A DNA stretch of 64,000 nt from an uncultured Actinomycetota bacterium (GCA_963848845.1 CAWKFH010000003.1:257471-321470); one strand, 5' to 3'; counted from the first letter of the stretch, positions 26,477 to 53,301 are shown. Translations and numbers: made by a program. The notes: generated from the letters alone by a model not told the origin.

Positions 26477-26485
26477 GACGCGCAC

Positions 26486-27385
26486 ATGCAACCCATCGCC
26501 CTCGTCGCGATCGCCGCCCTGACGCTCGGCCTCGGCACCCTGCTCTGGTTCGCTTTCGGCGGCGGAACTGCCGGACGGAAGCAGATGCTCGCCAACCTGC
26601 GCCGCCAACAGGAGCAGCCCAAGGAAACGATCAGCATTCCCACCGACCAGCAACCGGGCGGCCTGGCGAGGCTGCTGCGCCGCGGCCTGCCGGTGCCACT
26701 GGTGAAGTCGATCACCAAACTCTGGTCCGGTGCCGGACGTCCCGAGCACAACACCCCCGACCGGGTCATGGCGATGATGGCCCTGTTCGGCCTGGTGGGC
26801 GCGGTCGTCGGCATCCTGGCGTCCCGGGTCGTCGCGGCGCCGCTCGGGATCATCCTGGGCCTCGGCATCTTCGTGCTCGCCTTCTTCCTCCCCATGGTCC
26901 GGCTGCAGAGCGCCGGAGCCGACCGCAAGACCGCGATCAAGCGGGAGTTGCCGGACACGCTCGACCAGATGAGCATCGCGGTCAACGCCGGCCTCGGCTT
27001 CGACGCAGCCATGTTGCGGGTGGCCAGGAACGGGAAGGGGGTACTCGCCAACGAACTGGTGCGCACGCTGCAGGACATCCAGGTCGGGCAGACCCGGCGG
27101 GTGGCCTACGAGGACCTCGCAACGCGCACCGGGGTGGACACGTTGCGGAGGTTCGTCCGCTCGATCATCCAGGCCGAGGCCTACGGCATCGCCCTCTCCG
27201 ACGTCCTCCAGGCCCAGGCGGACGAGCTACGGCTGGAGCGGAGCCAGCACGCCGAGCGGAAGGCGATGGAGATCCCGGTGAAGGTGGTCTTCCCGCTGAT
27301 CCTGTTCATCATGCCGGCCATGTTCATCGTGGTGATGGGCCCGGCGGTGATCGGCATCATGGAAGCCTTCGGCAGCATGGGCTGA
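26486..27385 (+). CDS. tadC: TadC (type II secretion system F-family inner-membrane platform protein)
   Basis: Contains LPDTLDQMSIAVNAGLGFDAAM...IIQAEAYGIALSDVL and C-terminal TM helices. It lies directly after tadB. Confidence 0.8.
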   Translation: MQPIALVAIAALTLGLGTLLWFAFGGGTAGRKQMLANLRRQQEQPKETISIPTDQQPGGLARLLRRGLPVPLVKSITKLWSGAGRPEHNTPDRVMAMMALFGLVGAVVGILASRVVAAPLGIILGLGIFVLAFFLPMVRLQSAGADRKTAIKRELPDTLDQMSIAVNAGLGFDAAMLRVARNGKGVLANELVRTLQDIQVGQTRRVAYEDLATRTGVDTLRRFVRSIIQAEAYGIALSDVLQAQADELRLERSQHAERKAMEIPVKVVFPLILFIMPAMFIVVMGPAVIGIMEAFGSMG

Positions 27386-28026
27386 TGGAGCACCTCACCG
27401 GAGTAGTGGTCGGTGCCCTGGTGGCCGCTCTGGCCGCGTGGGCGCTGAACGGCGTCATGCTGCGGTTGGCCACCTCCGACGCCCCGATCCTGCACTGGCG
27501 CCTGCAGGTGCCGGTGGCAGCGGTACTCGGCGGCTTGGCCGGCCTGGCCGGCAGCTGGGCCGAGACCCTGACCTTCGTCGTGCTCGCGATCGCTTCCGGG
27601 CTGCTCACCGTGATCGACCTCGCCGAGGAGCGGCTCCCGGACGCGATCGTGCTGCCACTGATCCCGATCACCGCAGCACTGCTGGCCGTGGCCGCCTGGG
27701 TCACCGGAGACTGGGGTGCGCTGCTGCGTGCCCTCGGGGCGGGGGCAGCCCTGTTCGTGTTCATGTTCGCGATGATGATCTTCTCCCCCGACCTCGGCTT
27801 CGGCGACGTCAAGCTGGCTGCGGTGACCGGCATGGTCGGTGGCTGGTTCGGCTGGGGAGCCGTACTGCTCGGGTTCGGCGCAGCCTGGATCACCTTCGCC
27901 GTCCTCGGGGTGGTGATGCTGGCCACCCGCAAGCGCCACGGCCGGGGGTCCTTCGCTTTCGGCCCGTTCATGGTCATCGGAGCCGTCATCGGCGTCTTCT
28001 GGGCCGGCGCCGCCCTCGCCTGGTGA
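27385..28026 (+). CDS. tadV: Prepilin peptidase, A24 family (TadV/CpaA type, 213 aa)
   Basis: A polytopic membrane protein with the two catalytic Asp contexts LLTVIDLAEERLPD and GFGDVKLAAVTG. It has a 1-nt overlap with the tadC stop. Confidence 0.85.
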   Translation: MEHLTGVVVGALVAALAAWALNGVMLRLATSDAPILHWRLQVPVAAVLGGLAGLAGSWAETLTFVVLAIASGLLTVIDLAEERLPDAIVLPLIPITAALLAVAAWVTGDWGALLRALGAGAALFVFMFAMMIFSPDLGFGDVKLAAVTGMVGGWFGWGAVLLGFGAAWITFAVLGVVMLATRKRHGRGSFAFGPFMVIGAVIGVFWAGAALAW

Positions 28027-39679: not shown

Positions 39680-41446
39680 CTAGGGAGCGGGGACGGCCGG
39701 TGGCCCGACCGCGACCTGCGGCCCCGCAACAGCGTCGGCGGACGGCGTCCAGCTTTCGGAGGGTCGCAGCAGCAGCCACAGCCCGGTGACCAGCCCGGCA
39801 ACATAAAGGGGATCGCCGAGGACGGTGTCGCCGAGTTCACCCCACTGTGACGGATCGACGTCGGTGCCGGTGGCCCTGGCGAGGGCAACGTAAGCGACCC
39901 CGGTGGTGGCGAGAAGGGTGTTGGCAAGGAACAGCAGGACCCGGGTCGACTGCGGATACTTCGGCGACGAGACGTAGGTGACCTGGGCCTCGGTGAACAC
40001 CCGCCACGCCAGGCCGAAGATGAGCAGCAACGAAGGGGTGAGCGCCAGCAGGACGCCGGCCGGGTTCTCGAGGGCGTTGCGGTGCGGATACAGCACGGCG
40101 AGCAGCAACACCGTCATCACCCCGGTGGCCCGGCCGCGGTCGAGCCGTCGGGTTGCGGCGAGCACGGCGGCCGCGACCAGCGCGACCACGGCAGCCAGCA
40201 GGCCCAAGGCGGTGGTGGTGCGGTCCTGGAGGAAGGTGAGCGCCGGGGCGACGCCGACCGCGTCGGCGAGGGCAAGGATCGCGAAGCTGCCGAGCGCCAC
40301 GGCCTCGGCCAGCCGTTCGCTGCCAGCCAGCCGCCAGGCCAGCACAAGGGTCACCGTGCCGAGCGCCAGGCGCCACAGCAAGGCCGGGCTGTTGTCGTTG
40401 AAGGCGAACCACGCGGTGTTGAGCGCGTCCACCAGGCCGGTCTGCCCGAGCAGCTGGAAGATCCCGCGCAGGATGATCACGGGAAGGGTGAGCGCCACGA
40501 CGGCAGCCACGGCCGCGGCCAGCGGGTACAGCCAGCGTCCCCACACCTCGGGATAGGTCGCGGGGGGCGGCGGTGCGGGCACCCGGGCACGGCGGACCAG
40601 CACCGCGAGCGTGATCACCACCAGGGCGAGGACGACCGCGCTGGCGCCGATCGCCGGCCAATTCAGTTCGCGGCTCCCGGCGGCCAGGAAGGTGGCGATC
40701 GCCAGCCAGGCGACCGTGATGCCGAAGCCCGTCCAGAACAATCCCCGGCCCATCGGACGGTTGGCGGTGGCCTGGGCACCTGTCACCACGATCTGCGCCG
40801 GGGCGGAGCCGGCCACCATCACCGCTGGCAGGATCAGCGCCTGCAGGCTCACCAGGGCACCCTGCAGCGCGGTCGGGCGCAGGTCGAGTCCGAAGTCCAG
40901 CCCGGCGGCCGGCATCGACCACGGCGCAAGGGTGGCCACCGTCAGCAGTCCGGCGACCACCAGGAACTCCCACCACGCGTAGCCGCGGAACGAGCGGGCG
41001 ATCGTGAAGCCGACCAGGCCAAGGTAGGCGAGCGCGGAAGTCGCCAGCAGTGCCGGATTGGTCCAGGCCTGGGCGGAGAAGAAGACCACCGCTGCTGCGC
41101 CGATCAGCAGCAGGGTGACCCGCAGCCACCAGGACGAGTGCAGGGCTGCGGTGCCCGCCATGGCGAAGGAGAGGATCACCCCGGTCAGCAGCACCGGCAG
41201 GGCCACCTGCGGGACGCCGTCGGTCACGTTCGGACTCACCGCCAGGTCGCCGTTCTGCCGCAGCGGGGTGGCGAACAGGATGGCAAGGGTGAGCAGTCCG
41301 AAGACGACGGCGGTGGCTGTGCCTACCTCCCGCAGTCCGCGTGGCCACGCCGAGGGGTGTGGGCGGCCTTCCCGCACCGGGGCGACGAAAGTGATCCGCA
41401 GCACATCGCTGACCGCGGCAAGGAGCTCTGCCAGCACCGGTCTCAT
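39680..41446 (-). CDS. Large polytopic membrane protein, function unknown (588 aa), translationally coupled to the upstream beta-propeller gene
   Basis: Start ATG 41446 shares an ATGA overlap with the stop of 41443..43197. There are about 14 hydrophobic helices. The upstream 37 codons of the listed ORF are Arg/Gly junk. Confidence 0.65.
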   Translation of the reverse strand: MRPVLAELLAAVSDVLRITFVAPVREGRPHPSAWPRGLREVGTATAVVFGLLTLAILFATPLRQNGDLAVSPNVTDGVPQVALPVLLTGVILSFAMAGTAALHSSWWLRVTLLLIGAAAVVFFSAQAWTNPALLATSALAYLGLVGFTIARSFRGYAWWEFLVVAGLLTVATLAPWSMPAAGLDFGLDLRPTALQGALVSLQALILPAVMVAGSAPAQIVVTGAQATANRPMGRGLFWTGFGITVAWLAIATFLAAGSRELNWPAIGASAVVLALVVITLAVLVRRARVPAPPPPATYPEVWGRWLYPLAAAVAAVVALTLPVIILRGIFQLLGQTGLVDALNTAWFAFNDNSPALLWRLALGTVTLVLAWRLAGSERLAEAVALGSFAILALADAVGVAPALTFLQDRTTTALGLLAAVVALVAAAVLAATRRLDRGRATGVMTVLLLAVLYPHRNALENPAGVLLALTPSLLLIFGLAWRVFTEAQVTYVSSPKYPQSTRVLLFLANTLLATTGVAYVALARATGTDVDPSQWGELGDTVLGDPLYVAGLVTGLWLLLRPSESWTPSADAVAGPQVAVGPPAVPAP

Positions 41447-43197
41447 CGGGCCACCACGCCCAGCATCACACCGTTCGGACCGTGTACCAGCACCCGGCCG
41501 TGGGCGGCCACCAGATAGGCGCTGCCCGAGGACGGGTCGCCGATCGCCACCGGCCATTCGGTGACCTGGTTGCCGTCACCGTCCAGGAGCACCAACCGGT
41601 CGGCGCCGAGGAGCAGCAGCCGGCCACCCCCGCCGATCCCGGCGAAGGTCCGCGGTCCGCGCCAGGACCAGATGCGCTGACCGGTCCCGGGGTCGAGGCC
41701 GACGGTTTCGTCCTCGTCGCGGAGCACCACCACCCGGTCGAGGGCGATCACGTCCTGGGTGGTGAGCCGGTGGCGCAGCGTCCAGCGTTGGCTGCCGTCG
41801 GCGAGCGACAAGCCGCTGACCCTTGGCCCGTCGGAGTTCGGGATCACCACGACCGGGTCGGGACCGGCGCTGACAGCGAGGTCCTCAACCCGGCCGACCC
41901 GGGTGCTCCAAAGCTGGTTGCCCGGGGCGTCGAAGCAGGTCAGCTGGCCGCCCTGGTCCACGACCAGCACCCGCTCGCCGGCCACCAGCGGCGGGACGCG
42001 TACCTCGATCCCCAGCTGCTGCTGCCAGCGTCGGTCGCCGGTGGCGAGGTCGTAGCCGGTGACACTCCCGTCGAGGGTTGCTACCACCACCAGGTCGCCG
42101 AGGCGGGCCGGGCGCACCACAGCGAGGTCGGGCAGCCGCACCTCCCAGAGCCACTCCCCGGCCGGCCCGTACGCCACCAGTTGGCGATTGACGTTGGCCA
42201 CCACCGTGGTGGTGCCGAAGGTGGCGGCTGCGGTGTTCCGAACGCCGGGCCGCGCCCGCCAGACCGCAGGTGGCGGGTCGACCGCTGTGGCCAGGGCGAT
42301 CACATCGGGCACCACCTGGTTGGCGTAGACGACGGTGCCGTCGGCCAGGATCCCCGGAGCCGAGACCGGGCTGACCAGGGTGGTTCCCACGCCCAACTGG
42401 TTCACCTTGCGCGCGGTGAAGCTGAGCCGGTCGGCGCCGGACCAGTCGAACGGCGCTTCGGGGGTGACCCTGGCCGCCAATGGGTCGGTTGGCTGCCAGC
42501 GTCCGGCATCGGTGGCGAAGCCGGTGATACCGGCGTGCCGGCACCAGGTGCGCTCGCTGCTGGCCGGCTGGTTGTCGCCGATCTGTTCGCGCATGGTGAC
42601 CACCAGGCAGCCGCGGACCGTTAGTGCCCGGTCGCCGGCGGCTGTCGCGGAGAACTCGGCGCGGTAGCCGGCGGTGTCCGTTGCCCCTCCGGCGTCGGTC
42701 ACCAGCACGGCACCCTCGGAGGTCCAGCTGCGGCCGGCAGCGAGGTTGTCGGGCAGGTCGAGCCGTCCCGGTGCATAGACCAGGCTGGTGTCGTCGAACC
42801 CGCTGACCACTTCGGCGCGGACCCCGTCGCTGCCGATGCTGAACAGGTCGTCACTGCGGCCGCTGACCTGCCCCGCGCCGGTGAGCCGGACCGTGCTGAG
42901 CCGGGCCAACCCGGCGGTCGCCCAATCCAGCTTGGTCAGCGACAGCCAGGTGAAGAACTGGCCGGGGCCCGAACCGATCAGGGTGGCGGCCTGCCCGATC
43001 GCCCATTCGCTGGCTTCGACCCCGTCCGGACCGGCGAAGCGTTGGCGGTGGCCGTCCGCCGGGAGCCAGCCGGCTCCGCCCGTGTCGGCGGTGGTCACCG
43101 GGCGACCGAGTGCCGCCGTCAGGACCAGCAGGGAGACCAGGATCAGCCCGACGCCGATCACCGGAGCGCGGATCCGTCTCGGTTCGGTGGATTCCAC
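41443..43197 (-). CDS. N-terminally anchored extracytoplasmic protein with PQQ-like (BamB-like) beta-propeller repeats, 584 aa
   Basis: GTG start. The TM helix is VIGVGLILVSLLVLTAAL. The C-terminal half repeats the pattern G-x-V/L-x-A-x-D-x-x-T/G-G-x-x-x-W (LDGSVTGYDLATGDRRWQ, QGGQLTCFDAPGNQLWS, LADGSQRWT, DPGTGQRIWS). Confidence 0.7.
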   Translation of the reverse strand: MESTEPRRIRAPVIGVGLILVSLLVLTAALGRPVTTADTGGAGWLPADGHRQRFAGPDGVEASEWAIGQAATLIGSGPGQFFTWLSLTKLDWATAGLARLSTVRLTGAGQVSGRSDDLFSIGSDGVRAEVVSGFDDTSLVYAPGRLDLPDNLAAGRSWTSEGAVLVTDAGGATDTAGYRAEFSATAAGDRALTVRGCLVVTMREQIGDNQPASSERTWCRHAGITGFATDAGRWQPTDPLAARVTPEAPFDWSGADRLSFTARKVNQLGVGTTLVSPVSAPGILADGTVVYANQVVPDVIALATAVDPPPAVWRARPGVRNTAAATFGTTTVVANVNRQLVAYGPAGEWLWEVRLPDLAVVRPARLGDLVVVATLDGSVTGYDLATGDRRWQQQLGIEVRVPPLVAGERVLVVDQGGQLTCFDAPGNQLWSTRVGRVEDLAVSAGPDPVVVIPNSDGPRVSGLSLADGSQRWTLRHRLTTQDVIALDRVVVLRDEDETVGLDPGTGQRIWSWRGPRTFAGIGGGGRLLLLGADRLVLLDGDGNQVTEWPVAIGDPSSGSAYLVAAHGRVLVHGPNGVMLGVVAR

Positions 43198-43404: not shown

Positions 43405-44406
43405 TCATCGCCCCATCACATCCCGCACCGCCCGTACCACGTCCTCGGCATACTCCTCCGCATTCACAATCGAGGCATGGTTGGCTCCGGATACCATGCG
43501 GAATTCCCCGCGGGTGGAGAGGGTGGCCGAGCGGCGGTTGAACTCCGTCCAGGACCGGCGGTAGGCGTCGTCGGGCTGGTCGGCGTTGAGCACGATCAGG
43601 GGCAGGTCACCGAGGCTGGTCACGGCGCGCAGCTCGGCTGAGGTCCCGGGCATGCCGGCGCTGACGTCCAGCAGCAGGTTCCAGAAGCCGTTCTTCTGGC
43701 GCATGGCGCGGTAGGCAGCCGCCTGTTCCGCTGGCAGGTCGCCGGTGGTGATGCCGTCGACGCCAAGGCTGTCGCTCAGGCGCATCACGCCGACGGGCGC
43801 GAGCGCCGCCGCGATCTGCATGAATGAGTCATCCTGATTGGTGGAGAGCTCTGCGGGCAGGTCCGGTGTGTCGTAGATGCCCGGATCCACCAGCACCAGC
43901 CCGGCCGCCTGCCCAGCATTGCGGTCGGCGAACAGCAGCATCACGTCCGCGCCGTAGGAGTGCCCCACCAGAACGTAGGGTCCGCCGATGCCGGCGTTTA
44001 CCAGTGCTGTGTGCAGCTCGTCTGCCGATCGCCCCGCCGTGCGCGGCAGCGGTCCCGGTTCCGACCAGGCAAAGCCGGCCCGGTCGTAGGCGCACACGCG
44101 GTTGGTTCTGGAGAGCTCGGGCTGGACCAACGCCCACTCGGCGGAGTTTCCGTCCCCCAGATGGTCGAGGATCACCGTTGGACTGCCCTCGCCGGTGCAG
44201 TAGAGGTGCAAGCTGTGCCCGCCCACATCCACCAGTTCCCCAGGCGGCGGGAAACGCCGCACATCGGCGCTGTTCCCGACCTGCTGGTAGACGGCGCCGG
44301 CCCCCAGCATCGCGATCAGCAGGAGGATCAGCGCCAGCGAGGCGCGCGCCAGCCAGAACAGGAAGCCACGCCGGTGGGTGTTTCGCACGGGCCCACTCGA
44401 TGCCAT
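43405..44406 (-). CDS. Membrane-anchored alpha/beta-fold hydrolase, 333 aa
   Basis: Start ATG 44406 (MASSGPVRNTHRRGFLFWLARASLALILLLIAML). Contains the nucleophile elbow VLVGHSYGAD and VILDHLGDGNS. Confidence 0.75.
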   Translation of the reverse strand: MASSGPVRNTHRRGFLFWLARASLALILLLIAMLGAGAVYQQVGNSADVRRFPPPGELVDVGGHSLHLYCTGEGSPTVILDHLGDGNSAEWALVQPELSRTNRVCAYDRAGFAWSEPGPLPRTAGRSADELHTALVNAGIGGPYVLVGHSYGADVMLLFADRNAGQAAGLVLVDPGIYDTPDLPAELSTNQDDSFMQIAAALAPVGVMRLSDSLGVDGITTGDLPAEQAAAYRAMRQKNGFWNLLLDVSAGMPGTSAELRAVTSLGDLPLIVLNADQPDDAYRRSWTEFNRRSATLSTRGEFRMVSGANHASIVNAEEYAEDVVRAVRDVMGR

Positions 44407-44757
44407 GCTGCGCTCCACAGGAAGAGGTTGTCTGGGCAATTGGCATGGACAGTAACAGTCCCCCGGGAGGCCCACATCCCCGGCTGCTAGAAGTGCGTAC
44501 GGCCTTCAATGATTGGCAGAAGGGACCCCGTATTCGGTTTCGCGGGAACGGGAAAGGGCGGGATGGTTCTTTCGAATGCCTGGATCCACGTCCTGCTGCG
44601 CTATGTGGAAACGTTGCTGGGGAAGTGGCAAGACTCCGCCGGCGGAGGGCGAGCCAGAAGAAACGGCGTGCGAACAGCACAAGGGATTCGCGATCCTCTT
44701 CCAGATGGAAGAGGGCCGGATGACCCCGCCACGGGTTCACCAGCATCGAGCAACGAC

Positions 44758-46521
44758 TCAGGCCCGGCGAGCGCGCGGCCGGCCCTCGATGACCTGCTGG
44801 CAGAGCTCGACAGTCTCCGGCAGCAGGTCGAACCCGAGCATCCGGGCCTGGCGGGTCACCTGGTTGACGAGGCGCTCGACGTCGACTCGATTGCCGGCGC
44901 GATGCTCGGTGCGGATGCGGGCGCAGAGTAGTTGCTCGTCCTCCGCTGCCACCACCAGTGCCCGGGCGGCGGCCCACCGGGCCAGGTCGACATCTCCCCT
45001 CGCCAGCGCCCGCTCGGTGAGGATCAGCCCGACGTCGCGCAGGGCGCTGGCGATGTCCGTCCGCAGCTCCTCGGCCCAGTGCCACTGGCCGGGTGCAGCA
45101 TCGGCCAGTGGTGCACCCCGGACGAGTTCGAGGGCGGCCACCAGGGTGCTGTCGCCGACGCGATCGATCCCGGGGGACAACAGGAGCTGGACTCGCTGCC
45201 AATCCGAGGTCACCCCCGGATGCAGCAGGATCCGCCCGGAGTAGGCGTCGGGCAGGTAGGCCTGGCCGACCGGATCGTCGCCGAGCCAGTTCCGCAGCCG
45301 GCTCAGGTTCGATCGGCGCGTGCCCTCGGCCACTGCCAGCCCCGACGCCATGGCCGTAGCCGTGCGGCCGGGGTGCTCCAGCAGCCAGGCGCAGAGCTCG
45401 ATCAGCTGCTGCCGGGAGCGGCTCGGCTCGGGACCGGTGGCCCCGCGCAGGTCAGTGGGGCCGATCAGCAGCACCTGCGGGTGGGGTGTGGCCGCGACAA
45501 GTCTGACGACGTCCACTGGTTCATCTCCTCGGCGTGCGATCTGGGGCAGGGCAACGACGTTGCCGTCGTCCCCGCTCCACCACGGAGCGGGTGTGGTGGT
45601 GGGGTTGTCGGCGAAGCGGAACAGGGCGGCGACCCCCGCCCGGGCGGCTTCCGGGATGCCGTGCGCCCGCAGTTGCCCAGGCCGGCCGGCCAGTTGCCCT
45701 GCCGGTGCGTATGGGTCGCCGGTGACGGTCCACTGGACCACGGCGGGGGCAGGTGTTGGCAGGATCGCAGCGACCCCCGCAGCCGTTCCGCGGAGCACCC
45801 GGTCCAGTTCCTCGGCCGCTTCCGGAGGCACGTCGCCCGTGAACAGGAAGACCACCGGCGCGACTGCGTCGGCGCGGTCCGGATCGGTCCGCAACGCTGA
45901 CAGCTCTTCCTGGCCGAGGGCTGCCCGGCGTTGGCCGACCAACAGGTGGAGCTGGGCGATCGCGTCCTCGACCCGGGGCTGCCGCTGCACCCGGTCTCCG
46001 CCGGCCAGGGCGATCAGCTCCGCACCCTCGCCGACGACCACCAGCCGTGTTTCCTGTGACCAGGGCGCACAGGCAAGTTCCACTCCGATCGCGGCGAGGG
46101 TCGCGTTGCCCAACTCGACCTCTTCGGCCGCCACGCCGAGGACTCGGGAGCGCTCGGCGTCCACCAGAACAAGGTCTCCGGAAGCCGTGCTGCCCAGGCT
46201 CACGACCGCTGGGTAGGGGCATGGGTGCGCACTCGCGACGGGTTCGGACCATTGGTCGGCAGGGAGGGTCCAGCTGTCCGGGCTGGCGGTGAATCCGGCT
46301 GGTCGCGACCCGCTGGGGCCGGCCCAGTGAAAGGTGATCCCATCCTCGGCCACCTCGATCCGCTCGAGTTCCGGCAGCGCGATCCCGGCGTCGAAGCAGT
46401 GTTGACCGATCGTCCGAAGCGCAGCGTCCAGGGCGGCCAACCGGTCCGGACGCTGCCGGATCCCCATGGCTGCGCGGAGCCGGGCCGCCTGGTCCTCGGG
46501 CGGGATCAGCCGCCGGCCCAC
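44758..46521 (-). CDS. SARP-like regulator module (winged-helix plus BTAD domain). It is probably the C-terminal part of a LysM-TM-SARP fusion, because sense continues upstream to 46770 without a start codon.
   Basis: The C-terminal half reads QVLLIGPTDLRG...QQLIELCAWLLEHPGRTATAMASGL...RSNLSRLRNWLG...GRILLHPGVTSDW (OmpR/SARP-type wHTH pattern). It is followed by a helical BTAD-like region (STLVAALELVRGAPLAD...WAAARALVVAAEDEQLLCARIRTEHRAGNRVDVERLV). The first start in frame is GTG 46521. Confidence 0.7.
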   Translation of the reverse strand: MGRRLIPPEDQAARLRAAMGIRQRPDRLAALDAALRTIGQHCFDAGIALPELERIEVAEDGITFHWAGPSGSRPAGFTASPDSWTLPADQWSEPVASAHPCPYPAVVSLGSTASGDLVLVDAERSRVLGVAAEEVELGNATLAAIGVELACAPWSQETRLVVVGEGAELIALAGGDRVQRQPRVEDAIAQLHLLVGQRRAALGQEELSALRTDPDRADAVAPVVFLFTGDVPPEAAEELDRVLRGTAAGVAAILPTPAPAVVQWTVTGDPYAPAGQLAGRPGQLRAHGIPEAARAGVAALFRFADNPTTTPAPWWSGDDGNVVALPQIARRGDEPVDVVRLVAATPHPQVLLIGPTDLRGATGPEPSRSRQQLIELCAWLLEHPGRTATAMASGLAVAEGTRRSNLSRLRNWLGDDPVGQAYLPDAYSGRILLHPGVTSDWQRVQLLLSPGIDRVGDSTLVAALELVRGAPLADAAPGQWHWAEELRTDIASALRDVGLILTERALARGDVDLARWAAARALVVAAEDEQLLCARIRTEHRAGNRVDVERLVNQVTRQARMLGFDLLPETVELCQQVIEGRPRARRA

Positions 46522-47579
46522 CGGACGCTCGCGGAGCCGCAGGAAACGCCGGGCCTCGAGCGTCCCGATGATGGCGGCGGCAGCCAGCGTCCCGAGGGTC
46601 CCGAGCAGCGGAGCGAGGGGGGCCGCCGGCTCCTCAGCAACCCCCTCGGCGGCGGGCGATGCCTCGGCCGGGGGGGCCGTGGAGGCGCGTCCGGGTTCGG
46701 TGGCCGCCTGCTGATCGACCGGGGCGTCTCGGGAGGCGGTTCCGGTTCCGTGGCGAGCGTCGGCTCGGCTTCAGGGCGGTCGGGGTCCGGCCGGGAGCTG
46801 CGCGGAGCCTTCCCGGCGCCCGGGACTACCAGGCTCCAGCCGACCTCGATGTGATCGGGATCCCGGATCAGGTCGTCGTTGGCTGCGGCGATGCTTGGCC
46901 AGCGGCCAGCCGCGCCCAGGTGTTCGAGGGCGAGGCCCGAGAGCGTGTCGCCGGGCACGACCCGGACCCGAAGCGGCTCCTTGCCCCGCCCGGCCGGCAG
47001 CGCCAGCCTTGAGCCCGGCGTCAGGGGTCTCGATGGGTCGCCCAGCTCCACGGGGTTCGCTGCCGCGAGCTCCCGCCAGCGGCCACCGTCCCCAAGTAGT
47101 CGCTCGCTCACCGTCCAGAGATCGTCGCCGGGAGCAACGAGATACGTTCCCCGGCCAGGTTCGGCCAACTCGACGCGGGCCTCGGGCTCCGCAGCCAGAC
47201 CCGGGGGAGCCGGCTCCAGCGCCACCACCCTCGCCTGGTCCGGCGTCACATCCGCTGACCGTGCCGGGGCAAGGGCAAGGACGGCGAGCAGCAGGGCCGT
47301 GCTCACCTGCTGCAGGCCACCGAGCAGTGGAATCCGGAACCGCAACCTCCCGGCAGTGAGCAGCCGGACGGCTTCCACAACGATCGACGCGGTGAAGGCC
47401 GACCACGCGAGCCAGCCGACCGCGGTCAGGCCGACCAGCAGTACCGTCCCGTCGTCGGGGCGGGCCAGGGCCGCCGGCCACCCCTCGGGCGCCCGGCCCC
47501 AGGCGACCAGGGCGAGCGGGGCGCCCACCAGCATCACGACGAGGGCGGCCAAGGCACTCAGGCCACGAAGCCAGCGCAT
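46506..47579 (-). CDS. Membrane protein with two LysM peptidoglycan-binding domains and a Pro-rich linker. The last ~70 codons look out of frame.
   Basis: ATG 47579 has a 1-nt overlap with the upstream stop. Three TM helices are present. The LysM-like segments are YLVAPGDDLWTVSERLLGDGGRWRELAAANP and VRVVPGDTLSGLALEHLGAAGRWPSIAAAND. After ...EPEPPPETP the translation becomes Arg/Pro junk. Confidence 0.7.
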   Translation of the reverse strand: MRWLRGLSALAALVVMLVGAPLALVAWGRAPEGWPAALARPDDGTVLLVGLTAVGWLAWSAFTASIVVEAVRLLTAGRLRFRIPLLGGLQQVSTALLLAVLALAPARSADVTPDQARVVALEPAPPGLAAEPEARVELAEPGRGTYLVAPGDDLWTVSERLLGDGGRWRELAAANPVELGDPSRPLTPGSRLALPAGRGKEPLRVRVVPGDTLSGLALEHLGAAGRWPSIAAANDDLIRDPDHIEVGWSLVVPGAGKAPRSSRPDPDRPEAEPTLATEPEPPPETPRSISRRPPNPDAPPRPPRPRHRPPPRGLLRSRRPPSLRCSGPSGRWLPPPSSGRSRPGVSCGSASVRWAGG

Positions 47580-48001
47580 CACTTCCTCCCCCGGAATCGG
47601 TCCACCACGGCCTCGGCACTTGCCTCCACCAGGACCACCCCCGGCCACCCCGGTACCAGCACGTCGCCCAGCGGGACGTCGCAGCTGACGGTTGCGCTCA
47701 CCACCGCCGGCCGACCTGGCTGAGTTGCCAGCGCTGTGACGTCAACCTCGACCCCGAGGCGCAGGCAGCGGAGCCCACCGACGGCGGCCTGGGCCGCGGC
47801 CAGCTCCCGGGCGACCCGCGTGGCACCGCCCGGATCCCGCGCCTGGGATATCCCGCGAGCGGCGGCTCCTGCGGCCTGCTCGACGGTGGCGCGGGCCAGC
47901 CAGGTCCGCGCGCCGCCAACCACAAGGCCGACGAGCAACACCAGCACCGGGACGACCAGGGCGAACTCGACCGCCACCGACCCCCGCTGCTGCCCGGTCA
48001 C
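47579..48001 (-). CDS. TadE-like pilus assembly protein (140 aa; Rv3654c-type by pattern)
   Basis: The N-terminus QRGSVAVEFALVVPVLVLLVGLVVGG is TadE-like. It has a GTGA overlap with the upstream gene. Confidence 0.7.
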   Translation of the reverse strand: MTGQQRGSVAVEFALVVPVLVLLVGLVVGGARTWLARATVEQAAGAAARGISQARDPGGATRVARELAAAQAAVGGLRCLRLGVEVDVTALATQPGRPAVVSATVSCDVPLGDVLVPGWPGVVLVEASAEAVVDRFRGRK

Positions 48002-48357
48002 CGGGTGACCTGTTCCAGCGGCAGGACTGCACGCTCGATGACCAACCCCTGGCCGATGTCGAAGAACAACGGGGCCCGGCCGGAGACGGTAACGACCAGA
48101 TGCCCCTCCTCAGCGGCAAGAGTGATCTCCACCTGTTCCAGCCCGCCCTGGGCAGCGACCCGCCGTCCGGCCTGGCGGGCAGCGGCTTCGGCCGCCGGAC
48201 CGGTCGCCCGCAGGTCGGCCGCGACCGCCGCCGCCTGCGAGGCCACCGTCCTGGAGTGGAGCCACACCCCCAGCTGGACCAGCCCGAGCACCAGCAGCAG
48301 CAGGACGGGGAGGAGGATCGCCCACTGGGTGGATTCGGCCACCCCTCGCTGGTTCAC
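47998..48357 (-). CDS. TadE-like pilus assembly protein (119 aa; Rv3655c-type by pattern)
   Basis: Reads MNQRGVAESTQWAILLPVLLLLVLGLVQLGVWLHSRTVASQAA. It has a GTGA overlap with the small pilin gene upstream. Confidence 0.7.
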   Translation of the reverse strand: MNQRGVAESTQWAILLPVLLLLVLGLVQLGVWLHSRTVASQAAAVAADLRATGPAAEAAARQAGRRVAAQGGLEQVEITLAAEEGHLVVTVSGRAPLFFDIGQGLVIERAVLPLEQVTR

Positions 48358-48530
48358 GGCCGCGGCAGCTTCGCAGTGACGTAGATGGTGACGGCACTGA
48401 TCACGATCAGGGCGACGGCGACCGCCCCGGCGAGCAGGATGGCGTTCTCGGTCGACTGGGAGAGACCCCGCTGATCGCGGGCAGGTGGCGGCGCAACCAG
48501 GACTCCGACCAACAGGTGCAGGATTCTCAT
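48354..48530 (-). CDS. Flp/DUF4244-like small pilin candidate (58 aa), below the ORF-track cutoff
   Basis: My own translation of the minus strand gives MRILHLLVGVLVAPPPARDQRGLSQSTENAILLAGAVAVALIVISAVTIYVTAKLPRP. AAGGAG lies 5 nt upstream of the ATG at 48530. The stop overlaps the next gene's GTG. It occupies the flp position in the tadZ-tadA-tadB-tadC-flp-tadE-tadF order. Confidence 0.6.
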   Translation of the reverse strand: MRILHLLVGVLVAPPPARDQRGLSQSTENAILLAGAVAVALIVISAVTIYVTAKLPRP

Positions 48531-48551
48531 CGGTTCTCCTTGAAGGTGGTT

Positions 48552-49430
48552 TCAGCCGCTGACCAGTCGCAGGATGGGCGGCACGAGAAAGAACAACCCG
48601 AACACCAGGCTCGGGATGACCATGAACAACGACATCCGTTCCGAAACCGAGGCTGCGGCGATCTTCGCTTGCGTGAGGTGGGCGTCCCGTAGTTCCTTGA
48701 CCCGGGCGCGGAGCGCACCGGAGAGCGCTGCGCCGGACTCGTCCAGTGACATCACATCCGCGGCATCAACCAGGGCGGGCAGCTCCAGCTCGAGTCCGAG
48801 CCGGTGGAGTTCTGCAAAGGGCGCGCGCTGCTCGAGCCGGGCGCGTTCGAGCGCGTCCCGGATGGCTACGAACACCGCGATGTCGCTGACCGCTGCCGCC
48901 GATCGCAGCGACTGGCTCCCCGACTGGTTGGCCAGCCGTTCCAGGGTCACCAGGTCGAAGTAGGTCAACAGCGCCTCGGTTGCGTCCGCGCTGAGGTTGC
49001 CCTCGGCGCGGCGCAACAGCAGGTCGGGCAGGAAGAAGCCGGCCAGGCCGAGAACCAGCCCAGCGGCGGCCGGGAGCTCGGGTCCCGACCAGCCGGCGAG
49101 CACCGCGCCCAGGCCGAGGAGTGGCGGCAGCACCAACCCGCCCAGAGCCGTCAGCACCTTGTGCGCGCAGTGGCGATCCACCGACCGGCCCGCCATCCGC
49201 AACCGGCGGAGCGTCTCGGTACCCACCGGTTGCGGCACCCTGGCCCTGACCAGGCCGCCGATCCGGTCGATGCCGGTGCCAGCCGGCTCCGGCGGCGCTG
49301 CCGGCCGACCGTCCAGCAGGTCAAGGGCGTCCGCGAGCCGCGGCTGTACCGGCAGCAGGACGCCGACGAGAGACCACACCCCGAAGGCGACCAGCGACCC
49401 GGCCAGCACTGCGATCAACAGGTTGTTCAC
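48552..49430 (-). CDS. TadC-like platform protein (T2SS F family, 292 aa)
   Basis: GTG 49430 overlaps the tadB2 stop (GTGA). It has TM helices at both ends and a soluble middle. The listed 570-aa ORF is an out-of-context N-terminal extension overlapping tadB2. Confidence 0.7.
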   Translation of the reverse strand: MNNLLIAVLAGSLVAFGVWSLVGVLLPVQPRLADALDLLDGRPAAPPEPAGTGIDRIGGLVRARVPQPVGTETLRRLRMAGRSVDRHCAHKVLTALGGLVLPPLLGLGAVLAGWSGPELPAAAGLVLGLAGFFLPDLLLRRAEGNLSADATEALLTYFDLVTLERLANQSGSQSLRSAAAVSDIAVFVAIRDALERARLEQRAPFAELHRLGLELELPALVDAADVMSLDESGAALSGALRARVKELRDAHLTQAKIAAASVSERMSLFMVIPSLVFGLFFLVPPILRLVSG

Positions 49431-50290
49431 TGGGCCCGCCGCAGGATCCGCTGCCGGGGCCTTGGCAGGGTGAGCCGACGCAGGAGGAGCAACGAACCCA
49501 GGTAGGCCAACACCAGTGCCGTCAGCAGAACCTGCCCGAGACCCGAACCGTAGGGCGCGAAGAAGGACCCGCCGAAGAGCAGCGCCAGGGAGAGCACGAC
49601 CAGGGTGATCACGGTCACCTGCCGTACGACGATCCGGGGCTTGGCCCGCTCGGTCTCGATCTCCCGAAGCGCCCGAAGCCGGTCCTGGATGCTGTCGGCG
49701 AGCGCGGCGAGCGTGGCGGTGGCTCCCGTGCCGCCGCGTTCGGCAGCCAGCGAGAGGGCGGCGATCACGGCGTCCGCGTCGGCGCTGTCCAGTTCGTCGG
49801 CCAGGTTCAGGAGTGCCTGGCCAACGGTCCAGCGGTCGTCCAGCCGTACGATCAGCAGCCGCAGGCTCGGGGCCAGCAGAGCCGGAGCCTGGCCGACCGA
49901 GACCCGGATCGCATCCGTGATCGAGCGTCCGGTAGGCAACAGCGAGCTCAGGGTACGAATCCAGCGGTCGAGGGCTTCCAGCACGGCCACGTCGCGGTTG
50001 GACGGTGCCGAAAGCACCATCGGCAGCCCGAAGGTCACGATCGGGACCAGCACGGCGAGCAGCGGCCAGCCGACGAGGGCAGCCGTCACCAGCCCGGCGG
50101 CAAGGGCGAGAGCCAGCTGCCACCACCGCCTCCGGATGGCCCTGCCAGTGCCGCTGTCCACAAGCTTCCTCCACAGGCTTGTGGATGACGCGGTCGCGTT
50201 GGGAGGCGGGCTGTGGAAACCGGCGACGATCGCGATCCCTCCGCCGACGATCAGCACGCCGCAAACCGCAGCCAACAGGTTGCCCATCAC
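49427..50290 (-). CDS. TadB-like platform protein (T2SS F family, 287 aa)
   Basis: The N-terminal TM helix is LLAAVCGVLIVGGGIAIVAG. A soluble domain and C-terminal TM helices (VTVITLVVLSLALLFGG, LLTALVLAYLGSLLLL) follow. It has a GTGA overlap with the ATPase stop. Confidence 0.7.
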   Translation of the reverse strand: MMGNLLAAVCGVLIVGGGIAIVAGFHSPPPNATASSTSLWRKLVDSGTGRAIRRRWWQLALALAAGLVTAALVGWPLLAVLVPIVTFGLPMVLSAPSNRDVAVLEALDRWIRTLSSLLPTGRSITDAIRVSVGQAPALLAPSLRLLIVRLDDRWTVGQALLNLADELDSADADAVIAALSLAAERGGTGATATLAALADSIQDRLRALREIETERAKPRIVVRQVTVITLVVLSLALLFGGSFFAPYGSGLGQVLLTALVLAYLGSLLLLRRLTLPRPRQRILRRAQ

Positions 50291-51678
50291 GCCTCCCAGG
50301 CCGGGTTGAACTGGGCCAGCTCGGTCAGCAGGCCGGCTTCCGGACTGAAGTACTCCTCGCCGGCGGGATCTGAACGGTAGGTCAGGTGCGTGACCGGGCG
50401 ACCGCCCTCCAGCCCGCCGGTCAGCTGCCGGATCTCGGCTACGGCACGGGTCCGCAGCCCGCCGCGCCAGGTGTCGTCGACCAGCCGGACGTGGATCAGC
50501 AGGTGAATGTGGTGGGCGATCTGGCGGTACGCCTCATCCACGGTCAGCACCCCGCCCTGGGCTACCCGGGATGCGAGCCGGTCCATCGTGGAGGCGGCCG
50601 AGTGCGAGTGGGTGGTGGAAAGGGTCCCGGCACCAGCTGTCATCGCCTCGAACATGGCGCCCGCCTCACCTCCCCTGACCTCCCCGACGATCAATCTGGA
50701 GAGGTTCTGCCGGAGGGCCTCCGGGATCAGGTCGGCAACGCTGAACTCGCCGATGCGGCGACCGTCCTGCATCTCGCCCATGCCGACCCTCGCCTGCAGC
50801 GCCAGCATGTTCCGCCGCAGCGGCTGCAGGTGGGTCAGCAGTTCATAGTCGGTCTCGAGGGTCCCGAACCGCTCGTTCTCCGGGATCGCGGCGATCAAGG
50901 CACGGAGAAGGGTGGTCTTGCCCGCCCCCTGATCGCCCGAGATCACCATCGACTTGCGGGCCAGAACGGCCGCGTGCAGGAACCGCGCCACCTCGACCGG
51001 CATCGTTCCGCCCGCAGCGAGCTGACGCAGCGTCACGTCGGTCAGCGTGTGCTGGCGGATGGTTACCGACGGGCGGTAGCTGAGCCCGAAACCGATCGCA
51101 TGCAGCCGGAACCGATCGCCGAGCGCAAGGGTCATCATCGGGTGGGCGTCGTCGAACGGACGGGCCGGCGACACCGACTCACCAAGGAAGCGGATCGCCT
51201 CGACGAGCTCGACATCGGAGTCGGCAACGGCCGGTTGCGCCTCGCGCCGCCCGTCCCCGTACTGCACGACAACCGAGTCGAACCCGTGGATCTCGATGTT
51301 TTCGGCTCCCGGGATCTCGAACAGGGGCTGCAGGCGACCGAAGCCGAAGATGGCGTTCTCCACCGCCTGGGAGTAGGCCCGCTCCACCGGCATCGACCAG
51401 AGTGCCTCCCCGTTGCTGCTCAGCGCGTCCACGTGCTCGCGTACCACCGTCGCGATGATCGACCGGCCCAGGAGCAGGCGATCCACGTCAGTCTTCGGCC
51501 CGGGATGCTCGGCGAGCGCAGCCGTGATCCGCTCGGACGCCCGCCTTCGCAGCGTGACCACCAACGGCCAGTCGACGGCAGGGCCGTCGGGCCAGGTCTC
51601 GATCAGGCGCCCGCGACCGAAGCTGGTCTCCAGTGTCTCCGCCCCGGCCAGCAGGCCCACCTCGGCGAGCCGCTTCAC
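50287..51678 (-). CDS. CpaF/TadA-family secretion ATPase of tad-2 (463 aa)
   Basis: Contains GFGRLQPLFEIPGAENIEIHGFDSVVVQY, Walker A ISGDQGAGKTTLLRAL, and RLIVGEVRGGEAGAMFEAMTAGAGTLSTTHS. Confidence 0.8.
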   Translation of the reverse strand: MKRLAEVGLLAGAETLETSFGRGRLIETWPDGPAVDWPLVVTLRRRASERITAALAEHPGPKTDVDRLLLGRSIIATVVREHVDALSSNGEALWSMPVERAYSQAVENAIFGFGRLQPLFEIPGAENIEIHGFDSVVVQYGDGRREAQPAVADSDVELVEAIRFLGESVSPARPFDDAHPMMTLALGDRFRLHAIGFGLSYRPSVTIRQHTLTDVTLRQLAAGGTMPVEVARFLHAAVLARKSMVISGDQGAGKTTLLRALIAAIPENERFGTLETDYELLTHLQPLRRNMLALQARVGMGEMQDGRRIGEFSVADLIPEALRQNLSRLIVGEVRGGEAGAMFEAMTAGAGTLSTTHSHSAASTMDRLASRVAQGGVLTVDEAYRQIAHHIHLLIHVRLVDDTWRGGLRTRAVAEIRQLTGGLEGGRPVTHLTYRSDPAGEEYFSPEAGLLTELAQFNPAWEA

Positions 51679-52436
51679 CGCGGTGCCCCGATCAGGCTGC
51701 GCCGACCGGCTGAGCGCTCGGCGAGCTGCTTGCCGAGCGACCGGACGTCGTCGAGGTAGGCGCTGGTTCGCAGCCGGCGCGGCTCACGCTCCCCGGCGGC
51801 GAACACGGCCGCCTCGTTCGGCTGCCAGGCGATCTTGGCCCAGACGGGCACGCCGAACTGGTGCCCGATTTCACCGGAGCCGTACGGTCGGCCGGGTCCG
51901 GTGACGATCAGGCCCACCCGTTCCTCGCCGGCGGCGGCCACCACCTGGGGAAGGTAGAGCCGCAGGGCGGCCAGGTCGACCAGGCGGCTGCCGGTGACCA
52001 CGCCGATCCCACTGCTCACGTTCACCAGGGCTGCAGGGAGCCCGTCCGGGGTCACTCGGCCCGCGTCGACCAGCACTGTCCGGCCATAGCCTTCGAGCGC
52101 AGTTGCCAGCTCCGGCCACACCGGGTTGAACAGGGTCACCATGCCCGGGTGGGAGAAGCCGGGCAGGAAGTCGTGTGCCTCCGCCTCGTCCAATGGAATG
52201 GACAATGCCGCGATGATTGCCGCCAACGGTCGCCGTTCCCGGTGCGCCTGCAGCACACCGCCAAGTCCCCGCCCGGCCGGGTCGGCACCCTGCAGGTAGC
52301 CGGCCAGCACAGACTGGTCGGGTTCGGTGTTCGCATCGACGAGCAGAACCGGTTCGGGCCAGGTGACCGCCAAGGCCACCGCGAGGCTGGTCACCCCAGG
52401 GGAGTGGCCGGCGCTGGTCAGCAGCAGGACGCTCAT
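51675..52436 (-). CDS. ParA/MinD-like (TadZ-position) protein with a degenerate P-loop, 253 aa
   Basis: ATG 52436 shares an ATGA overlap with the SAF gene. It reads MSVLLLTSAGHSPGVTSLAVALAV where a Walker A KGGxGKT would be. The listed 432-aa ORF carries a 179-codon Arg/Gly junk extension. Confidence 0.6.
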   Translation of the reverse strand: MSVLLLTSAGHSPGVTSLAVALAVTWPEPVLLVDANTEPDQSVLAGYLQGADPAGRGLGGVLQAHRERRPLAAIIAALSIPLDEAEAHDFLPGFSHPGMVTLFNPVWPELATALEGYGRTVLVDAGRVTPDGLPAALVNVSSGIGVVTGSRLVDLAALRLYLPQVVAAAGEERVGLIVTGPGRPYGSGEIGHQFGVPVWAKIAWQPNEAAVFAAGEREPRRLRTSAYLDDVRSLGKQLAERSAGRRSLIGAPR

Positions 52437-53053
52437 CGCTGGCCCCCGGCCAGCCGCACCAACACGAGCTGGTCGGCTGCCGCCAGCCGCGCCACCCGCT
52501 CGCCCTCGGCCGCAGCCACGGCGACGTCCACCGCGGCAGCCCCGTCCGGCAGGGTCGTGGCCGTCGTGGCGATTCGGCCGGTGACGCTGGCGCCGGCCGG
52601 CGGCTCGCCTCCATCGCGGCCGACCGGCACGAGCAGCACCTCGGTCCCCGGTGGCATCGGTGCCGCCGGCAGCCGCCCGGCCGCCAGCCGCAGGCCCAGC
52701 CGGACGCTGCCGAGTTCGACCGGCGGCTGGCCGTAGGAGCGGGGGCTGAGCAGGCCGCCCTCGCCGAGGTCGATCAGGGCGGTGCGGCCGACCACCTCGT
52801 CCAGCTGCGCGGACGACACCGTCTCCACCCCGACCGCGGGAACCGCTGACGTGACGCCGAGGTCGGCAGCCGTGATCACCTGGTCGCGATACACCGTCCG
52901 CTTCACTGTGAGCACCGACTGGGCGCTGCTCAGGTTTCCGTAGAGCAGGGCCGCGCCCAGCCCACCGAGACACACGGCCAGCACACCTACCGCCATCCAG
53001 CGCAGGTTCCGCCGGGTGCGCACCGGGCTAGCGCCCAACCTCTCCGCGGCCAT
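52433..53053 (-). CDS. SAF-domain / CpaB-like protein, first gene of tad-2 (206 aa)
   Basis: The TM helix is WMAVGVLAVCLGGLGAALLY. A SAF-like segment follows: VLTVKRTVYRDQVITAADLG...LIDLGEGGLL. GGAGG RBS precedes the ATG at 53053. Confidence 0.7.
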   Translation of the reverse strand: MAAERLGASPVRTRRNLRWMAVGVLAVCLGGLGAALLYGNLSSAQSVLTVKRTVYRDQVITAADLGVTSAVPAVGVETVSSAQLDEVVGRTALIDLGEGGLLSPRSYGQPPVELGSVRLGLRLAAGRLPAAPMPPGTEVLLVPVGRDGGEPPAGASVTGRIATTATTLPDGAAAVDVAVAAAEGERVARLAAADQLVLVRLAGGQR

Positions 53054-53301
53054 CAGCCGACCCCCTCCCGCCGGGGCGGCTGGACCTCGGGGTGGAGCGC
53101 AGCGACCAGTCCGGCGGTGCAGGGATCGTAGGCGAGCAACCCGACCGATTCCTAGAGCGCATTCGTACCCTGTGGAGAACTCGTGAACCCATCCACAACC
53201 GCCGGGCCATCCCCCGGGGCCGTGGTCATTGTCCTGACACCTGCTTGTCCTGTGGCGGCCACGTTGGTGGCACTAGGGTGTTCATCGTGAACGTAGAGGC
53301 G

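Follow-up and report, generated by a model that had tools for sequence, protein, structure and literature searches.

The SARPs described so far are soluble proteins that activate antibiotic gene clusters. The membrane regulators ToxR, CadC and TcpP carry a cytoplasmic OmpR-type winged helix and an outside sensing domain in one polypeptide. FtsK, TraB of Streptomyces, TcpA of pCW3 and the DUF domain of EccC share a membrane anchor followed by an FtsK-type P-loop fold, and FtsK and TraB end in a winged helix that reads short repeats. TsaP and FimV/HubP direct LysM domains toward peptidoglycan and are linked to a type IV filament machine. Elements of these proteins are predicted to meet in the product of a gene located at positions 44758-47579 on the minus strand of a 64,000-nucleotide (nt) stretch of DNA from an uncultured Actinomycetota bacterium (GCA_963848845.1 CAWKFH010000003.1:257471-321470), hereafter called the window. 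The gene is the last one of a Tad pilus operon, tad-2, and is interrupted by a frame change. Its repaired product of 940 amino acids (aa) is predicted to contain four transmembrane (TM) segments, an extracellular pair of LysM domains, a degenerate FtsK-like domain and a C-terminal SARP module.

The only described structures that significantly match the C-terminal module are AfsR of S. coelicolor (PDB 8K60, 8HVR) and EmbR of M. tuberculosis (2FEZ, 2FF4), which combine the same winged helix and all-helical BTAD domain and have the 'LLIGP...' start and the 'xSRLRxxL' recognition helix in common with it. In the large SARP AfsR, the module is likewise joined to a P-loop-fold domain, possibly one controlling oligomerisation (PMC10936776). 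However, the module is N-terminal in AfsR and EmbR and C-terminal here, and the AfsR partner domain is a STAND NOD, whereas the one considered here is FtsK/HerA-like and catalytically dead. Unlike AfsR and EmbR, moreover, the present product would be an integral membrane protein with extracellular LysM domains, encoded in a pilus operon and not in a biosynthetic gene cluster. Compared with ToxR, CadC and TcpP, the order is reversed, with the sensor at the N-terminus and the DNA-binding part at the C-terminus; the TM segments number four and not one, pseudo-ATPase and BTAD domains are additional, and the ectodomain is LysM. The differences from the FtsK/SpoIIIE family are the Walker-less domain (the EccC DUF domain is also degenerate), a SARP C-terminus in place of the gamma domain, and an association with Tad genes instead of conjugation, cell division or ESX genes. 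TsaP (PDB 3jc8) is matched through its LysM part only and binds a secretin, which the tad-2 operon lacks. FimV/HubP share the outline of LysM, TM segment and large cytoplasmic part (PMC12918733), whereas FimV ends in a TPR 'FimV' domain and is not described as having a SARP or FtsK-like fold.

The nearest listed counterpart in a Tad locus is PAGK_2369 (PAGK_RS11975) of the C. acnes plasmid pIMPLE-HL096PA1, a protein of 1037 aa with 27% identity over the FtsK-like and SARP parts. As here, its gene directly follows TadE/TadG-like genes of the Tad locus; unlike here, it is plasmid-borne, and the residues of its recognition helix differ (LSASTVRSIATHLRHWLG). Table 2 of a 2013 paper (PMC3666418) gives its Pfam content as 'LysM, BTAD' and mislabels it TadB. 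That table was the only mention found in the literature searched, which yielded no functional study of a LysM plus BTAD/SARP protein in a Tad locus; neither the rpl locus of R. equi nor the tad clusters of M. luteus (PMC4322843) include such a gene in the papers that describe them. The statement of the initial annotation that no role had been described for such a protein in Tad systems therefore still holds for the role, although the gene itself had already been listed.

Two open reading frames of one interrupted gene

The locus is occupied by two open reading frames (ORFs) on the minus strand, ORF A and ORF B, which meet in a linker region:

44758-47579 (-), whole repaired gene, 940 aa plus stop after insertion of one base in the linker; last gene of the tad-2 operon
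46506-47579 (-), ORF A, 358 aa from ATG 47579, comprising TM1-3, two LysM domains and half of the linker, then an out-of-frame tail
44758-46521 (-), ORF B, 587 aa, starting with GTG 46521
46618-46820 (-), Pro/Ala/Glu-rich extracellular linker that holds the frame change
46721-46724 (-), run of four C (GGGG on the plus strand), the favoured site of a missing base; with five C the product would read ...EPEPPPETPPVDQQAATEP...
46670-46676 (-), run of seven C, the alternative site of a missing base

The ORF listing extends the start of ORF A further upstream, to GTG 47648, and ORF B is present in the protein database as a separate call (P0020). The in-frame part of ORF A ends with ...EPEPPPETP (46722-46748), after which begins an Arg/Pro-rich, out-of-frame tail of about 72 aa that is common to no homologue. 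In the frame of ORF B, 83 open codons extend upstream of GTG 46521, back to a stop codon at 46771-46773. These codons contain no ATG, GTG or TTG start, have a coding-like G+C content at third codon positions (GC3, 0.82), and encode APLAPLLGTLGTLAAAAIIGTLEARRFLRLRERPVGRR, which is almost identical in intact homologues. Frame B is therefore translated there in the relatives, as TM4 followed by a stop-transfer sequence. According to a GC3 scan, a long start-less coding-like upstream extension of this kind is unique to ORF B among the 38 gene-like ORFs of the window. The Arg/Pro tail and the start-less extension, with its linker, TM helix and stop-transfer, are just as the initial annotation had described them.

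Insertion of a single base restores one reading frame of 940 codons. The repaired protein is covered over 100% of its length by more than 100 homologues, about 920-1000 aa long and 40-75% identical, which belong to Propionicimonas, Micropruina and other Propionibacteriaceae. In a scan with one genome per species, 355 relatives were detected, and the best 80 loci were compared. The repaired protein gave a single-frame tblastn match over residues 1-940 in nearly all of these 80 loci, and the linker, anchored by the second LysM domain and TM4, lies in one frame in 69 of 74 sequences. Neither half of the gene contains further stop codons or frame breaks. These sequence comparisons confirm the proposal of the initial annotation that ORF A and ORF B are two halves of a single gene of about 940 codons, split by a single-base frame change in the linker, and the two called ORFs are better read as one interrupted gene.

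The frame change is confined between the frame-B stop (46771-46773) and approximately position 46640, and the frame is restored by one base more or two fewer. The composition likelihood relative to homologous linkers peaks at 46713-46730, an interval that includes the C4 run, with an advantage over the C7 site of just 2-3 natural-log units. The C7 run is the longest C or G homopolymer of the 74 linkers, in which every other run is 6 or shorter.

With respect to its nature, the break has roughly even chances of being an assembly artefact or a real, very recent mutation. A real break, to which we assign slightly less than half of the probability, would mean that the locus now gives two products or none that works, as a recent pseudogene or by natural gene fission. 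The products would be a 3-TM LysM protein with a junk tail, lacking TM4, and a soluble, untethered pseudo-FtsK-SARP protein starting at GTG 46521. This is favoured by the absence of any other sign of indel error in the window, where no further indels were found and the neighbouring genes checked are all intact, and the extension of ORF B is the sole case among 38 ORFs. The homologous gene is also frame-broken in the same linker in the assemblies of four other species (L009, L021, L051 and L071), and therefore the linker is either error-prone or a tolerated point of gene fission. Two of these assemblies (L021 and L071) have Illumina-style NODE_ contig names and contain two overlapping ORFs, the second of which (691 and 684 aa, respectively) retains TM4. 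In one more locus (L045), the homologous gene is broken further downstream.

On the other hand, the linker is in frame in the great majority of the sequences compared, both halves of the gene are otherwise open, and TM4 is perfectly conserved. Because no start codon precedes TM4 in frame B, the C-terminal product would be left without its anchor, and no clear ribosome-binding site was seen before GTG 46521. The linker in which the break is located is rich in G+C and contains the C4 and C7 runs, a kind of sequence in which sequencing errors are common. Among the other broken copies, some originate from metagenome-assembled genomes named MFD... or tig..., which suggests long-read assemblies. An exact search of metagenome contigs found no same-species copy across the junction; the closest relatives are only 75-78% identical.

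Programmed -1 frameshifting was rejected as unlikely, since there is no slippery heptamer, a -1 slip of CCC lands on GCC, and the orthologues are in one frame. Homopolymer phase variation is not supported as a trait of the family, the runs in the 69 in-frame linkers being no longer than 6 and two of the other broken copies being devoid of runs of 5 or more, although the C7 run of the window is the longest observed. Apparent frame switches in the neighbourhood, suggested by tblastn with stop-to-stop ORFs of the relatives, proved to be shadow ORFs, in the opposite strand or another frame, of intact fumarase, GDPD, citrate synthase and EamA genes.

Predicted topology and domains

The following segments of the repaired protein were delineated:

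47505-47561 (-), TM1, residues 7-25, from hydropathy and the positive-inside rule; the N-terminus MRWLR is predicted to be cytoplasmic
47379-47444 (-), TM2, residues 46-67; the loop after it, VRLLTAGRLRFRIP, has four Arg and no acidic residue and is predicted to be cytoplasmic
47271-47327 (-), TM3, residues 85-103
46995-47147 (-), LysM domain 1, residues ~145-195, predicted extracellular, from Pfam and PDB LysM profile matches
46821-46970 (-), LysM domain 2, residues ~204-253, predicted extracellular; best Pfam stretch 206-253, Kbp/LysM match with E 1.7e-9
46558-46617 (-), TM4, LAPLLGTLGTLAAAAIIGTL, in frame B upstream of the called GTG; a helix in the structural model
46510-46557 (-), positively charged stop-transfer sequence, EARRFLRLRERPVGRR, enclosing GTG 46521 of ORF B
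45571-46518 (-), FtsK/TcpA/EccC-like P-loop-fold domain without Walker A or B, ~315 aa, cytoplasmic, from the model (pLDDT 87) and Foldseek
46072-46146 (-), stretch equivalent to the P-loop, RVLGVAAEEVELGNATLAAIGVELA, from a motif check
46021-46047 (-), stretch equivalent to Walker B, RLVVVGEGA, from a motif check
45175-45498 (-), OmpR-type winged helix of the SARP module, from the model, Foldseek and motifs
45448-45474 (-), 'LLIGP' start motif, inside the winged helix
45280-45327 (-), putative recognition helix, EGTRRSNLSRLRNWLG, in the AfsR register of PMC10936776, aligned by hand
44773-45174 (-), BTAD-like all-helical domain, from the model and Foldseek; the Pfam BTAD profile matches 3 of 34 family members

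The predicted topology, drawn from the four hydrophobic segments and a charge distribution in accord with the positive-inside rule, places the N-terminus inside, followed by TM1-3, the LysM pair and the acidic Pro-rich linker outside, TM4, and the last ~600 aa inside. The three TM helices of ORF A (hydropathy) and its two LysM segments agree with the initial annotation. The LysM profile PF01476 scores 40.8 bits against a cut-off of 20.9, over two stretches, and LysM is present in all of the 8 divergent family members scanned (8/8), near residues 170-325. Pfam and NCBIfam scans of the window protein returned LysM only.

The order of LysM, TM and SARP in the earlier domain layout stands, but that layout overlooked the ~315 aa between TM4 and the SARP module. 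An AlphaFold2 model of 670 aa in frame B has a predicted local distance difference test score (pLDDT) of 87.1 and a predicted template-modelling score (pTM) of 0.84, and a Foldseek comparison with PDB resolved two separate folds in it. Whole-chain TM-scores are low (0.3-0.4), because the query has several domains. The middle domain matches TcpA (E 2e-6), the FtsK motor (E 1.6e-5) and EccC/EssC domains, including the degenerate 'DUF' domain of EccC (target-normalised TM-score, TMt, of 0.47-0.51 for EccC). Across the family, the P-loop position reads RVLGVAAEEVELGNA... and the Walker B position LVVVGEGA. The Walker A motif GxxxxGK[ST] is absent from the middle domain of the 44 aligned, 237 long and 3 plasmid members, and the DE pair of Walker B is absent from the equivalent stretch of the 44 aligned members, the set checked for it. 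The middle domain is therefore a pseudo-ATPase and not an active member of the FtsK/HerA group, and it resembles the degenerate EccC DUF domain.

The last 265 aa were modelled with a pLDDT of 89.3 and a pTM of 0.85. At E <= 1e-3, this model has only six Foldseek matches in PDB, all of them AfsR (E 4e-7, query-normalised TM-score, TMq, 0.62-0.64, TMt 0.65-0.67) or EmbR (E 7e-6 to 3e-5). The alignments span about 260 columns with 19-24% identity, TMq of 0.58-0.64 and TMt of up to 0.67, and the next matches are generic TPR proteins with E > 0.017. The characteristic motifs of the C-terminal part are the 'LLIGP..L.G' start, the helix TRRSNLSRLRNWLG, which resembles the 'xxSRLRKxL' recognition helix of SARP and OmpR proteins, and 'Y.GR..L...V.SD...' after the wing. 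The DNA-contact residues of AfsR are R87, T88, S91, R92, R94 and K95 (PMC10936776). When the helix RRSNLSRLRNWL is set by hand on AfsR numbering, with R-R-S-N-L-S-R-L-R-N placed on R87-T88-x-x-S91-R92-x-R94-K95 (a placement by eye and not by structural alignment), the pattern R87, T88 (here Ser), S91, R92, R94 appears to be kept.

Within the chromosomal family the putative recognition helix does not vary; in the plasmid members from Cutibacterium, Kitasatospora and Rhodococcus it is altered, while 'LRxW.G' is constant. A helix that is invariant among orthologues and differs between subfamilies shows the pattern expected of specificity-determining residues. The BTAD profile (PF03704) matches 3 of the 34 family members (best E 5e-4), and some members carry the NCBI name 'bacterial transcriptional activator domain' or 'BTAD' protein; the C-terminus of the Kitasatospora protein, used in phmmer as a bridge to AfsR, revealed no link. 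The assignment of the last ~260 aa to SARPs is thus supported at the level of the predicted fold only, together with motifs and the BTAD labels of a few divergent homologues.

The tad-2 operon, its promoter and the family

The genes of tad-2 upstream of the interrupted gene, which together span 47579-53053, and the structures downstream of it are as follows:

52433-53053 (-), cpaB/SAF (Pfam)
up to 52973 (-), tadZ-like, no Pfam match
50287-51678 (-), tadA (Pfam)
49427-50290 (-), tadB (Pfam)
48552-49430 (-), tadC (Pfam)
48354-48530 (-), flp (flp ORF)
47998-48357 (-), tadE1 (Pfam)
47579-48001 (-), tadE2 (Pfam)
44695-44714 and 44667-44681 (-), two hairpins after the stop codon of the interrupted gene, the second with a T-rich tail; a terminator-like site also follows the stop

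The start codon of ORF A (ATG) and the stop codon of tadE2 (TGA) have one base in common (TGATG, 47577-47581), and the hairpins at 44667-44714 likely mark the end of the operon, in keeping with the original view of the gene as the last, translationally coupled one of a Tad operon. The gene order cpaB-tadZ-tadA-tadB-tadC-flp-tadE-tadE-LysM/SARP was observed in 53 of the 55 chromosomal loci with enough upstream DNA. The same position after tadE is occupied on three plasmids, C. acnes pIMPLE-HL096PA1, Kitasatospora pKP058 and Rhodococcus pLP156, where the product is annotated in all cases as 'LysM peptidoglycan-binding domain-containing protein'.

The second Tad operon of the window, tad-1 (22028-28026, plus strand), is canonical, encoding RcpC/CpaB, a ParA-like TadZ, CpaF, TadB, TadC and an A24 prepilin peptidase, and it lacks a LysM-SARP gene. 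A gene for a VWA-domain protein adjoins it (19743-21254, minus strand). The tad-2 ATPase is divergent (T2SSE E 5e-20, versus 6e-68 for tad-1). Given this ATPase and the TadZ-like ORF without a Pfam match (together 50287-52973), tad-2 represents a distinct Tad subtype, which is also found on actinobacterial plasmids. Because a peptidase gene is missing from tad-2, the processing of its pilin may rely on tad-1.

Downstream of tad-2, the closest relatives have a PQQ/BamB-like beta-propeller gene about 100 nt after the LysM-SARP gene; in the window, the two are separated by an alpha/beta-hydrolase gene (43405-44475 for the hydrolase and 41443-43197 for the propeller, both on the minus strand). Elsewhere in the window, two very long ORFs with gene-like GC3 are located at 876-8114 (2412 aa) and 12380-16924 (1514 aa), both on the minus strand.

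The intergenic region between cpaB and a divergent sigma gene (53054-53301) contains the boxes GTTCTCCACA. A box of the type GTT[AG]TCCACAG is located at 53171-53180 (minus strand), with an inverted TGTGGAT about 21 nt upstream. Such a box precedes a GGAAT-type -35 element by about 20 nt in 40 of the 44 tad-2-type promoters (loci L003-L080, upstream of cpaB), often with a second copy 18-41 nt further up, in direct or inverted orientation. The whole window contains four matches with one mismatch allowed, three of which fall in tad-2, and two of these are inside the 5' part of tadB (50153-50162, plus strand, and 50180-50189, minus strand). The relatives have 2-3 boxes 13 nt apart at the same place in tadB, and some have boxes upstream of flp; none was found in the three plasmid loci. 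The box matches the DnaA-box consensus TTATCCACA (TTGTCCACA in actinobacteria). It could be bound by DnaA or by the SARP domain encoded in the operon itself. No SARP-type direct repeats were found in the region downstream of the LysM-SARP gene.

The divergent gene encodes a protein with sigma-70 region 4, lies at 53092 (probable true start ~53302) to 53820 on the plus strand, and is conserved in 9 close relatives. The layout of the tad-2 promoter, GGAAT-N17-TAnnAT, is ECF-like, and the Tad locus of the C. acnes plasmid is likewise reported to have a sigma/anti-sigma pair in front of it (PMC3666418). An ORF on the minus strand at 53905-54825 matches just positions 7-133 of the 343-position Pfam profile Mem_trans (auxin-efflux-carrier-like). 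In L009, a stop-to-stop ORF reaches further and has a two-frame match, probably a shadow of the sigma gene.

An HMMER search with ORF B, i.e., the cytoplasmic FtsK-like and SARP part, among 1.84 billion representative proteins retrieved 1,852 clusters (at 50% identity) with E <= 1e-3 and 357 clusters with E <= 1e-30. The majority of the matching clusters represent proteins of 850-1,280 aa that are matched at the C-terminus. Plasmid records account for 172 matches, 123 of them from Streptomyces. The SARP module stands here in an architecture and a pilus-operon context that were undescribed before, and the family is large and uninformatively named.

Candidate functions

We consider it about an even bet, or slightly less, that the protein acts as a wall-anchored, membrane-tethered activator of the 'large SARP' type. 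It would be fixed to peptidoglycan by its LysM domains, and the dead FtsK-like domain would serve as an oligomerisation or relay module, paralleling the NOD ATPase domain of AfsR. The SARP modules gathered at the membrane would activate transcription in response to the condition of the wall or of the pilus machinery; their target would most likely be the tad-2 locus itself or genes dependent on it. A more specific formulation, in our analysis a rather doubtful one, is that of an undescribed class of large SARPs, spread over many actinobacteria, in which the LysM ectodomain and a membrane-proximal, dead FtsK/EccC-like ring would gate the SARP module. Such a protein would couple the state of the envelope or of the Tad machine to transcription, or would tether DNA at the pilus base, in a distinct Tad subtype found on chromosomes and on many actinobacterial plasmids, the acne-associated one of C. 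acnes among them, with the DnaA-box-like sites of the tad-2 promoter and of tadB as possible operators.

Several observations weigh against a tethered activator. Unlike in AfsR and EmbR, neither profile of the classical module recognizes the protein: Trans_reg_C (PF00486) matches neither the window protein nor any of the C-termini of 34 family members at E <= 1, and BTAD (PF03704) does not match the window protein. The winged helix and BTAD domain claimed by the initial annotation are therefore borne out by the predicted fold and not by these two profiles, whereas the LysM profile named along with them did match. Two sequence-profile searches of PDB detected no SARP, their matches being confined to LysM or weak TPR/HAT repeats. 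Two residues that classical SARPs conserve, W74 and P79, have no evident equivalents, and helices 2 and 3 are joined by a short loop. Also in contrast to AfsR and EmbR, the adjacent promoter lacks SARP-type operator repeats. With SARP operators defined as direct repeats 11 or 22 bp apart, the 3' repeat being 8 bp from the -10 element, none was detected in the promoters covered, namely that of tad-2 in the window and 44 related ones. The sole strongly conserved upstream motif is the DnaA-like box, which lies near -58 in either orientation, unlike known SARP sites. The strict position in the operon and the overlap of the start codon with the stop of a minor-pilin gene would be expected of a machine part more than of a regulator. 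Finally, fixing a DNA-binding domain to the membrane, perhaps within a ring, poses a steric problem unless the domain is set free. The missing operator of SARP geometry, along with the reversed domain order and the four TM segments, also leaves the earlier designation as a ToxR-like one-component regulator with a loose fit.

The strongest competing explanation, to which we would give roughly two-thirds of the weight of a tethered activator, is that the protein has a structural function within the Tad machine instead of a regulatory one. LysM would fix the machine to peptidoglycan in an envelope without secretin, and the dead FtsK-like domain would form a cytoplasmic ring or platform beside TadA, TadB, TadC and TadZ. 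Since the BTAD part is TPR-like, the SARP fold could have been re-used for protein-protein contacts. This explanation accounts for the location of the gene right after two tadE genes, as the last one, in 53 of 55 loci and on three plasmids, for the overlap of its start with the tadE2 stop, and for the lack of a SARP-type operator in tad-2 promoters. The LysM region of the profile matches TsaP, the LysM protein of the type IV pilus machine structure (PDB 3jc8). Relatives of FtsK and EccC act as rings close to the membrane, and in the EccC DUF the ATPase is degenerate as well. The divergent TadA and the TadZ-like ORF without a Pfam match suggest in addition that tad-2 may need extra parts. However, the complete arrangement of winged helix and BTAD has been kept, beyond the TPR-like part alone, and the putative recognition helix is Arg-rich, invariant among orthologues and varied between subfamilies. 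Moreover, no homology to known Tad proteins (TadD, TadG, RcpA, RcpB and others) was detectable with Pfam or NCBIfam.

It is improbable that the protein serves envelope DNA handling, in which it would act like a TraB or FtsK without motor and hold DNA at the Tad apparatus during uptake or the transfer of plasmids. In favour of this, Foldseek ranks the conjugation coupling protein TcpA first for the middle domain and FtsK next, and members of the family are often encoded on actinobacterial plasmids. Peptidoglycan binding is reported for TraB of pSVH1 (PMC4447253), and Tad/Flp pili are required for natural transformation in Micrococcus luteus (PMC4322843). However, the M. luteus tad clusters described in the latter paper list no such gene, the C-terminal module has the SARP fold and not that of the FtsK gamma domain, and without Walker A in the members examined or the DE pair in the 44 aligned ones the protein cannot be a translocase motor.

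If the activator reading is true, the role of the SARP class would be extended by a protein that is embedded in the membrane, binds the wall and is tied to a pilus machine. For the family as a whole, the sole database label of which is 'LysM peptidoglycan-binding domain-containing protein', the gene may offer a handle on how Tad pili are controlled or anchored in secretin-less bacteria. The same gene is found in the Tad locus of a C. acnes plasmid linked to acne-associated strains (PMC3666418).

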